From contig CP084167.1 of the NCBI GenBank assembly GCA_021513715.1, positions 320,001-384,000 on the forward strand: a stretch of 64,000 nucleotides of DNA, given 5' to 3'. The stretch comes from Candidatus Heimdallarchaeum endolithica. GTDB taxonomy: Archaea > Asgardarchaeota > Heimdallarchaeia > Heimdallarchaeales > Heimdallarchaeaceae. Every line of letters begins with the position of its first letter. The stretch's first letter is position 1. Both the position numbers and the translations under genes were made by a program. Shown here one piece after another: positions 48,296 through 49,746 of this stretch. The notes beneath the pieces were generated by a model. That model made no database searches. It saw nothing but the letters and a program-made list of their open reading frames with translations, and was not told where the DNA came from.

Positions 48296-49746
48296 ATGGA
48301 GAAGATAGTCAAAACTTTGAAAGTTAGAATAAAGAATGAAGTTTTGACGAGGAGAAAAAAGGAAAGATTAAGGAGAATAACAGGGAGAGACACAAGGATA
48401 ATAGAAAAATATGTAAAAATTATTCATCACAACAGAAGAAGACTGTGTATGAAAACAAAGAAAGGAGAAATAAGAGTACATAAAGGGAAGTTAGATGAAC
48501 TAACATTAACAACATCAAGGATAAAAAAAGTAGAAGAGCGAAGAGAGACTGTTCCTCATGACCTTAAAAAGATGTTTCCCTATTGTTCTCACGATGAGTT
48601 TCAAGAGTGCAGAGATATAGCAGTACAACTGTACGAGCAAGGATATAGACCTGAAGCCACTCGTCCTCCAAAAAAGAGACCCCGAAGACAACTAATCAAT
48701 AAAAAAAGATTTATTCTTACTAATTTACCAAAAGAGAAAAATAACTCTATTTCTCGTTGGTGGGTAGGAATAAGAGACTCATTAGACACGTGGAAAAGAA
48801 AGACCCCCTACCATCAGAAGTTGTGGTTACCTTTAGAGATGAGCACTTTTCATCAAAAAGAATTGAAAAAAGGACAAGTGAAAAGCCTGGAATTAAGATA
48901 TAAACGTTCTACACGTGAGTGGTGGGTGTATTTTCAATTAGAAGTTCTTCCTCCTTCTTCTTTTCTAAGCGATAATTCCTCTTCTTCTTCTCTTCCTCCA
49001 GCTGTGCTGGGGATAGATCTAGGGATAAACATTCCTGCTGCAGGAGTGTTACTAACTCCCAAAAAGAAATTAACTATTAAAGAAATAAAATTTTGGCATA
49101 CCAAACAGTGGAATAGAATTAATCACAGATATAAACTCAAGTTTTCCCGTCTTCAGAGGAAAGCAGCTTTAAATGACCAGTCGGGTAAAAAACACCAAAT
49201 TTATCGTTTCCTTAGTCTTCTCAGAAGAAGATATAGAAACGTTAAACGGTCCTATATTCACCAATTTATAAGCGACGTTGTGCGGACGATAGAGACCTAT
49301 GCAAAAGTGTATGACCTTTTCGTCGTCGTAGGTTACCCCAAAAATGTTAGAAAAAAAAAGGAAAAGGTAAAAGTACTCGTTATTATCGTAGAAAACTTTA
49401 CCAGTGGAATTATGCTCATATTCTTAGTCTTCTCCGTCGAGCATTGATATTAAGAGGTTTTGAATCTCACCGCATTCTCACTTTAGACGAAAGAGGAACA
49501 TCTTCTCATTGTTCCCGTTGTGGAAAAGAAGTTTCTCGTCCCGTCAGAGGATTAATACACTGTCCCTTTTGTAACTATACTTACCACTCTGATTTAACAG
49601 GAGCTAGAAATATTGCTCGTAAATTCCTTAGTCATCTTTTTCGTCCCCGTACTACAACTATTACTGATTATTTTACTGGTCAAAAGTTTAGTCTTACGCA
49701 TTATACTGTTTGCCGAGGACTCAGCCATTGGTTGCAGTCCCAGTAG
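48296..49746 (+). CDS. tnpB: TnpB-like RNA-guided nuclease with rearranged RuvC-II, split by a -1 frameshift at A9G (49351-49360)
   Basis: RuvC-I VLGIDLG, VVVGYP, LDERGTS, Zn finger CSRC/CPFC, RuvC-III HSDLTGARNI; the -1 frame reads KGKGKSTRYYRRKLYQWNY... into the second ORF; ~483 aa when joined. Confidence 0.85.

Follow-up and report, generated by a model that had tools for sequence, protein, structure and literature searches.

A damaged tnpB in a transposase-less element

The window, a 64,000-nucleotide stretch of the Candidatus Heimdallarchaeum endolithica genome (one contig of 3,326,783 bp), contains a damaged copy of the gene for TnpB, an RNA-guided DNA endonuclease, in a small Asgard mobile element (Table 1). 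The element is a 1,820-bp insert between two CATG sequences (48155-58 and 49979-82) with tnpB as its single gene and no transposase, and its inverted arms of about 27 bp are 87% complementary over 31 nt with CATG counted in. The empty site was confirmed in the sister genome as a single CATG inside an open 968-codon frame. The interrupted host gene also has TAG at 48119-48121, where the sister genome has TAC, which is consistent with decay of the host gene after insertion.

Table 1. Features of the tnpB element and the interrupted host gene (window positions)
Feature	Start	End	Strand	Remarks
Interrupted host gene, 3' part	47051	48158	-	Sister-genome orthologue open, 968 codons
CATG, left junction, target side	48155	48158	+	Preceded by C, giving a V-CAT(G) context; orthologous empty site has CATG once
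Left inverted-repeat arm	48159	48185	+	Two tandem TTTTGCGAA units
tnpB, whole	48296	49746	+	Start and end of gene; frame-corrected length 483 aa
tnpB, 5' part	48296	49359	+	WED/REC lobe, RuvC-I, bridge helix, RuvC-II strand with Gly
RuvC-I catalytic Asp	49016	49018	+	In GIDLG (starts 49010); DLG, not Fanzor DPG
Gly at canonical RuvC-II Glu position	49331	49333	+	In VVVGYP (starts 49322)
A9 run, minus one base	49351	49359	+	Frame broken; among 12 copies, only in the window copy
tnpB, 3' part	49360	49746	+	Alternative Glu, C4 zinc finger, RuvC-III, C-terminal tail; PF07282 E 2.9e-10
Alternative catalytic Glu (Ealt)	49489	49491	+	In LDERGTSSHC (starts 49483); same column as Fanzor2 E467
C4 zinc finger	49510	49572	+	
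RuvC-III catalytic Asp	49591	49593	+	In HSDLTG (starts 49585)
Predicted omega-RNA scaffold	49697	49981	+	Several stems; 5' limit approximate; fold z -5.1
Right inverted-repeat arm	49952	49978	+	Last base T, next to CATG; T-CAT is a candidate self motif
CATG, right junction	49979	49982	+	CAT part of RNA pseudoknot; fourth base differs among copies
Predicted guide from host flank	49982	49998	+	Start 49982 or 49983; inferred from TnpB biology and the pseudoknot
Interrupted host gene, 5' part	49983	50617	-	Ca-binding D-T-D-x-D-G repeat protein

The genome holds 12 full copies of this tnpB family (family A), the window copy included, and the sister genome about 11. The lesion in the window copy separates RuvC-I from the alternative Glu, the zinc finger, and RuvC-III, so that the two halves of the gene lie in different frames, and mending the one-base loss in the A9 run yields 483 aa, the approximate length that a sequence-only reading of this DNA had given for the frame-corrected protein. 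Comparison of the copies found the A9 run in 0 of the 11 other full copies, and the loss at 49351-49359 is either a private mutation or a homopolymer assembly error. An A-AAA-AAG slippery heptamer is formed there; programmed frameshifting is not favored because the lesion is present only in the window copy. Eight sister copies are intact and three of the 11 are broken, as is the window copy, and a dN/dS of 0.13-0.24 across the eight intact copies indicates purifying selection. Protein work was based on intact natural paralogues rather than the frameshifted window copy, namely P0001 (483 aa), which supplies the residue numbering (D241, G346, E399, and D433), and P0006 (84% identity across the first 351 residues). 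Intact natural copies include those at genome positions 1755894-1757342 and 1138971-1140428. The closest named protein matches were from Heimdallarchaeum or Heimdallarchaeaceae.

Ends of this kind are common to four TnpB lineages and two guide-RNA MITEs. Besides family A, they bound family B (2 copies, 53% identical to the window family), the canonical-Glu family C (3 copies), family D (1 copy), and MITEs of ~380 bp (about 17) and ~357 bp (about 6). Both the sister genome and another genus have elements of the same design. A weight-matrix scan for end pairs returned only TnpBs and MITEs, as it did in another genus, and no transposase was found within any copy of these elements. AT are the only bases common to both junctions in all copies, and inheritance of CATA versus CATG on the copy trees followed no clear pattern. 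Our literature search found no publications on archaeal TnpBs whose elements end in inverted repeats and CATG, and TnpB goes unmentioned in the paper describing the genome (PMC8813620).

Other mobile DNA is present in the window and elsewhere in the genome. The window includes a decayed IS4/IS5-like DDE element of ~1 kb at 54384-55391, with AAGCATGTCC inverted repeats, 7-9 bp duplications, and about 30 copies in the genome, and an intact IS481 copy at 45773-46846 (312 aa, ~16 bp target duplication), one of a family with 24 near-identical ORFs in the genome. A 457-aa ORF at genome positions 2006471-2008200 (L007), adjoining a tRNA gene, is flanked by a left end of the CATG type and a tail resembling an omega-RNA; this ORF does not look TnpB-like and has, by eye, a C-terminal restriction-nuclease-like motif.

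A rearranged active site in a TnpB fold

The protein has the features of the TnpB superfamily, RuvC I-III, a C4 zinc finger, and a WED/REC lobe, and it matched NF040570 with an E value of 1e-22 and 81 bits, below the 100-bit cut-off. The sequence-only reading had described an active site of the rearranged type, with Gly for the canonical RuvC-II Glu (VVVGYP), a Glu some 50 residues later before the zinc finger, and both Asp residues intact (GIDLG and HSDLTG). This description was upheld throughout: the Gly lies where it had been placed, Ealt is positioned 53 codons past it and six residues ahead of the first zinc-finger Cys, and the Ealt pattern recurred in 108 of 110 full-length matches. D241, G346, E399, D433, and C406/C409/C423 were invariant, and C426 nearly so, in 66 homologues with 33-89% identity, and because of this invariance of the triad, the Gly, and the finger Cys residues the motifs are not chance.

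E399 aligns to the Glu column of giant-virus Fanzor2-like proteins, which corresponds, in a mapping counted by hand, to E467 of mimivirus Fanzor2 9B0L, a residue required for cleavage (PMC10530073). In an AlphaFold model (pLDDT 85.5), DSSP assigned D241 to strand 1 of RuvC and G346 to strand 4, with E399 where strand 5 ends. The catalytic Glu of RIIr-5 TnpB is on beta-5 (PMC10691335), and its match with E399 at the end of strand 5 supports E399 as a triad member. Alignment and model together indicate that Glu399, in place of the strand-4 Glu, is very probably catalytic.

The N-terminal half, which had been read as unlike typical TnpB, is so by sequence, since a Pfam search of this half gave no match, and not by fold. 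Many of its residues are invariant in the homologue alignment, and between residues ~4 and ~450 the whole-chain model matched Cas12f 8DZJ (Z 18.7, rmsd 8.0, 369 aligned), ISDra2 TnpB 8H1J (Z 16.8), and Fanzor2 9B0L (Z 15.0). As modeled, the N-terminal half is a diverged WED/REC lobe and no new domain. At 483 aa, the protein exceeds ISDra2 TnpB (408 aa) and does not merit the term "compact" used earlier. AsCas12f and OsCas12f were the best PDB matches by both sequence and structure over the whole chain. Fanzor1 structures did not appear among the PDB matches listed, an absence with no bearing on kinship. Unlike this protein, Cas12f has the canonical Glu; the protein also scored 64 bits against the 450-bit Cas12f2 cut-off, and no CRISPR array or cas genes lie beside the window tnpB, a one-gene element inside a host ORF.

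By motif, the protein belongs to the published D-Phi-G/Ealt TnpB class (TnpB2, RIIr), with Gly for the canonical Glu, a Glu six residues before the first CxxC, and D-Phi-G all present. TnpB2 TvTnpB (PMC10530073) and RIIr-5 (PMC10691335) share these motifs with it, as well as a structured downstream RNA and, in most members, an NAD-type RuvC-III. In contrast to other D-Phi-G/Ealt TnpBs, the Asgard clade described below is longer (480-610 aa), has a REC insertion and a C-terminal tail, and is centered on Asgard archaea. TvTnpB resides in a Y1 IS605 element, whereas the window tnpB is in a transposase-less element with inverted ends.

A predicted omega-RNA and family-specific flanks

The structure of the omega-RNA predicted from the right end of the element is supported by covariation, with two-sided changes in 7 of 65 consensus pairs; an Rfam search gave chance matches only. 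Positions 49833-49838 pair with 49976-49981, ~150 nt apart, to form a terminal pseudoknot of the sort typical of omega-RNAs in the literature. The paired hexamers are ATGATT/AATCAT in family A and ATGAGT/ACTCAT in 14 relatives and MITE1, with no perfect match in family B or C. Because the closing hexamer ends in CAT, CAT would close the scaffold and the guide would start at or after the variable fourth base.

The flanks of the insertions are biased on both sides. The right CAT is followed by a constrained base (G in 29, A in 9, T in 2, and C in 2). Among 32 insertions of families A and B and MITE1, only 2 have T ahead of the left CATG, compared to a background of 0.34 (p 2e-4), and the right end of these elements is itself T-CAT. 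This scarcity was repeated in relatives (1/16 and 0/12). Family C and MITE2, with T-GAT(G) as their own right end, have T at this position in 8 of 8 insertions (p 2e-4). The pattern parallels the one-base difference between TAM and self (TGGG/TCGG) described for the Cbo IS607 TnpB (bioRxiv 2023.11.20.567912). These flank statistics predict family-specific TAM and self motifs, with 5'-[ACG]CAT(G) as the predicted TAM of the window family and its own end, T-CAT, escaping cutting. The flank bias could instead stem from the transposase alone rather than from selection by TnpB.

Ancestry and mobilization of the element

We consider it probable that the window gene is a damaged D-Phi-G/Ealt TnpB of an Asgard-centered clade, with an omega-RNA made from the right end, in a transposase-less element of IS607-type ancestry that is moved in trans, and without demonstrated Fanzor ancestry. 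IS607 ancestry is suggested because members of a subclade that is sister in the tree (P0125 and P0134, the latter labeled Odinarchaeota) lie directly behind HTH-resolvase tnpA genes. Like the IS607 elements Cbo IStron and ISXfa1 (bioRxiv 2023.11.20.567912; PMC10711439), the Heimdall elements have a short core at both junctions and one in the empty site, a right flank constrained at its first base, discrimination of TAM from self by one base as predicted above, a pseudoknotted RNA, and tnpA in sister lineages. They differ from IS607 in an AT/CATG rather than GG core, in inverted-repeat ends, which IS607 elements are reported in the literature to lack, and in having tnpA in neither element nor genome: no IS607 tnpA (NF033518) was above cut-off in the host or sister genome, none was in the element, and no tnpA remnant was upstream of the copies in genus g4.

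Two chromosomal serine recombinase genes (genome positions 316731-317450 and 405351-406097), each with a catalytic and a recombinase domain in 240-249 aa, are candidate helpers. This pair is found in both genomes and in most family members, with at least one gene in a conserved neighborhood. The IS607 tnpA genes of relatives were rejected as helpers, as they partner other, longer ORFs without these ends, and Cas1 genes were rejected as CRISPR-linked. In the Heimdall IS607 elements (L220-L225, L245-L247), tnpA accompanies a different, longer ORF and CATG-type ends are absent; this ORF probably represents a ~650-aa TnpB class.

A broader reading, which we hold only tentatively as a possibility, is an undescribed Heimdall transposition system whose CAT-core ends serve two guide-RNA MITEs and no fewer than four TnpB lineages that are unrelated and include both canonical and rearranged types, with an outside enzyme that is neither Y1, IS607 tnpA, nor the DDE of the genome, and with the TAM of each TnpB tuned by one base against its own end. 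If true, it would be a prokaryotic parallel to Fanzors entering inverted-repeat transposons.

A rather unlikely alternative treats the element as a non-autonomous transposon of the DDE type, one that duplicates 2-4 bp (AT or CATG) and whose DDE transposase is unrecognized or absent. Terminal inverted arms of this length, CATG present once in the empty site and twice in the filled site, and published DDE-linked TnpBs with inverted ends (PMC10691335) would all suit such an element. A duplication of 3-4 bp fails, however, since the fourth base differs between the junctions in many copies, and with AT as the sole sequence that the junctions share throughout, a duplicated tract of 4 bp is unlikely; an AT duplication would leave family C and MITE2 with G...G ends that form no inverted pair. 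Four multi-copy transposase families were checked (IS4/5-like, IS481, IS6-like, and 381-aa DDE), and none shares these ends. As helpers, the IS4/IS5-like element at 54384-55391 was rejected for having CATG inside its own AAGCATGTCC repeats and 7-9 bp duplications, and the IS481, IS6-like, and 381-aa DDE families for having other ends.

We regard it as improbable that the Y1 transposase of the genome moves this gene in trans as an ordinary solo TnpB of the IS200/IS605 (IS1341-type) kind. One Y1 tnpA is indeed present, solo TnpBs mobilized in trans are known (PMC10691335), and a left target motif with a similar right motif fits peel-and-paste transposition. The element ends, however, are T-rich repeats with no obvious subterminal hairpin by eye, whereas the IS605 of this genome has a classic hairpin end, and, unlike in IS200/605 (PMC10711439), there is a constraint on the base next to the right CAT. 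The Y1 tnpA, a single gene with a MITE1 copy at its 5' end, was rejected as helper. At this locus (genome positions 925129-925900; L010), the TnpB of the IS605 element also has the Gly/Ealt arrangement.

An Asgard-centered clade apart from Fanzor2 in the best tree

A tree of 100 RuvC sequences (LG+C20, 253 columns), from a set without Fanzor1, cyanobacterial pro-Fanzors, and TvTnpB itself, placed the protein in a 27-sequence clade with support of 100/100, the named members of which are all Heimdall, Thor, and Odin archaea of the Asgard group. The clade is nested in larger D-Phi-G/Ealt groups (98/92 and 100/95) and apart from Fanzor2. Elsewhere in the tree, 21 DPG proteins from viral contigs, many in giant-virus bins, formed their own clade (100/99), and for the two that were checked the best match was 9B0L. 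In profile-profile comparison the Asgard clade scored 497 and 355 with other Ealt TnpBs, 306 with canonical TnpB/Cas12f, and 152 with Fanzor2, in a test biased against Fanzor2 because the non-Fanzor groups had been picked as matches of the Asgard profile. AU tests on the reduced set and short RuvC alignment did not reject Fanzor2 forced together with the whole clade (p 0.40) or, on the reduced set, with the Heimdall branch only (p 0.12).

According to Yoon et al., DPG and Ealt together define Fanzors and pro-Fanzors, and the D-Phi-G/Ealt clade is separate (PMC10711439). The Heimdall protein resembles Fanzor2 and pro-Fanzor (ApmFz2, PDB 9B0L) in its Ealt site, and 9B0L also has Gly in place of the canonical Glu; inverted-repeat transposons likewise carry Fanzor1 and some Fanzor2 proteins. 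Unlike Fanzors, it has no DPG, no DRD in RuvC-III, a separate position in the tree, and an archaeal host. The rearranged site also occurs in the IS605 TnpB of the host genome, in family D, and in nearly all next relatives from a search of 1.84 billion sequences, and by these sequence surveys it is widespread among archaeal TnpBs. As a rearranged site is known and common, the protein is therefore no Fanzor missing link: its Fanzor likeness reflects a widely shared active-site type, with no demonstrated ancestry.

A place for the clade on the Fanzor stem, with eukaryotes obtaining Fanzor from such an Asgard TnpB already in an inverted-repeat element, is very improbable. It would accommodate the Gly/Ealt arrangement as in 9B0L, the Heimdall-group host, the inverted-repeat ends, IS607 tnpA in sister lineages as with Fanzor2s, and the AU results. 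It is opposed by DLG instead of DPG (0 of 110 matches have DPG), an NADxNG-type RuvC-III instead of DRD, the nesting of the clade among D-Phi-G/Ealt TnpBs in the best tree, profile and structure scores lower to Fanzor2 than to Cas12f/TnpB, and the published derivation of Fanzors from DPG cyanobacterial IS607 TnpBs (PMC10711439). In the trees and alignments used here, Fanzor ancestry is unsupported rather than disproved. The sequence-only reading was right in proposing a distinct clade, to be sought by phylogeny, and in its caution that DLG rather than DPG leaves ancestry not shown; the compactness it gave this clade fell with the length of the protein, Fanzor2 kinship was not recovered in the best tree, and the relevance it saw to Fanzor origins is not supported, given the absence of DPG, the commonness of the site in archaeal TnpBs, and the separation from Fanzor2.

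Proposed activity and its implications

The invariant residues, the equivalence to E467, the strand placement, and the purifying selection make the intact copies likely to encode an active nuclease. The least probable alternative, a catalytically dead protein that is only an RNA-guided binder or passenger, would account for the missing canonical Glu and the broken window copy and three of 11 sisters, and it is opposed by the invariance of the three acidic residues at 33-89% identity, by the dN/dS values, by the activity of TvTnpB and Fanzors with a rearranged site (PMC10530073), and by a self/non-self flank pattern that implies cutting.

In the model we propose, Asp241, Glu399, and Asp433 would form the RuvC triad of the intact copies, with functions assigned from Fanzor2 E467 and TvTnpB. 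The right end would be transcribed as an omega-RNA whose scaffold is closed by the pseudoknot ending in CAT and whose guide reads into the host flank. The nuclease would then cut the empty site left after excision, beside the 5'-[ACG]CAT(G) TAM, and homologous repair would restore the element, the T-CAT of its own end being spared. Mobilization would occur in trans, with ancestry pointing to an IS607-type serine recombinase acting at the short AT/CATG core.

With a complete genome containing at least eight intact copies, a predicted RNA, a guide start, and a TAM, a CAT-type and possibly collateral-free nuclease is directly testable. The opposite flank biases of the two families (V-CAT where the element itself ends in T-CAT; T-CAT where it ends in T-GAT) provide a natural test of co-evolution between TAM and element end, and the helper enzyme would reveal a change of transposase partner by TnpB in the archaea closest to eukaryotes. 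The value of the system lies in the element and the testable TAM prediction and not in the Fanzor-type site.

Variation among relatives

The clade resembles the published Cas1H-Asgard (aCas1-linked) TnpB groups (PMC10691335) in that its Thorarchaeota members carry GTTCACTCA behind a variable stretch; the ACTCA core of GTTCACTCA is similar to ACTCAT, with which the Heimdall elements end on the right, whereas the GTTCACTCA motif is absent from the window element. By sequence, the Thorarchaeota members probably belong to these groups, in which case part of the clade has already been seen. No Cas1 was found beside clade tnpB genes at 80 loci by neighbor clustering and PF01867, a Pfam model that aCas1 may escape.

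Wider scans yielded one chance match only in a metagenome pattern scan and no match in a viral scan with P0134. At about 25 of the 80 loci, all from Thorarchaeota (L034-L094, L284-L288), a divergent ORF of 1765-1878 aa lies 240-330 bp upstream of tnpB. It occurs in several copies per genome, has a PD-(D/E)xK-like motif near residue 400-435, and has no match in the host genome and no Pfam or Atlas assignment. Several of these tnpB and large-ORF modules abut tRNA genes or fragments. A GAGTTCA...TGAACTC hairpin with a TATA-like box of its own ahead of it also lies upstream of tnpB in Thorarchaeota (L284:8550-8640; L285:9520-9600; L286:8950-9010), and its GAGTGAAC is complementary to the downstream GTTCACTC loop; the hairpin and loop may possibly form a split, two-part guide RNA.

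In one Heimdall genus (L022, L025, L028, L029, L032, L033), the tnpB element is found repeatedly just behind the stop codon of a HerA/TrwB-like ATPase (907 aa in L022), and elements there have a structured left region of 300-480 nt. The clade members P0125 and P0138 (852 and 736 aa) have extra MazE/MraZ-like or winged-HTH domains before the RuvC region.
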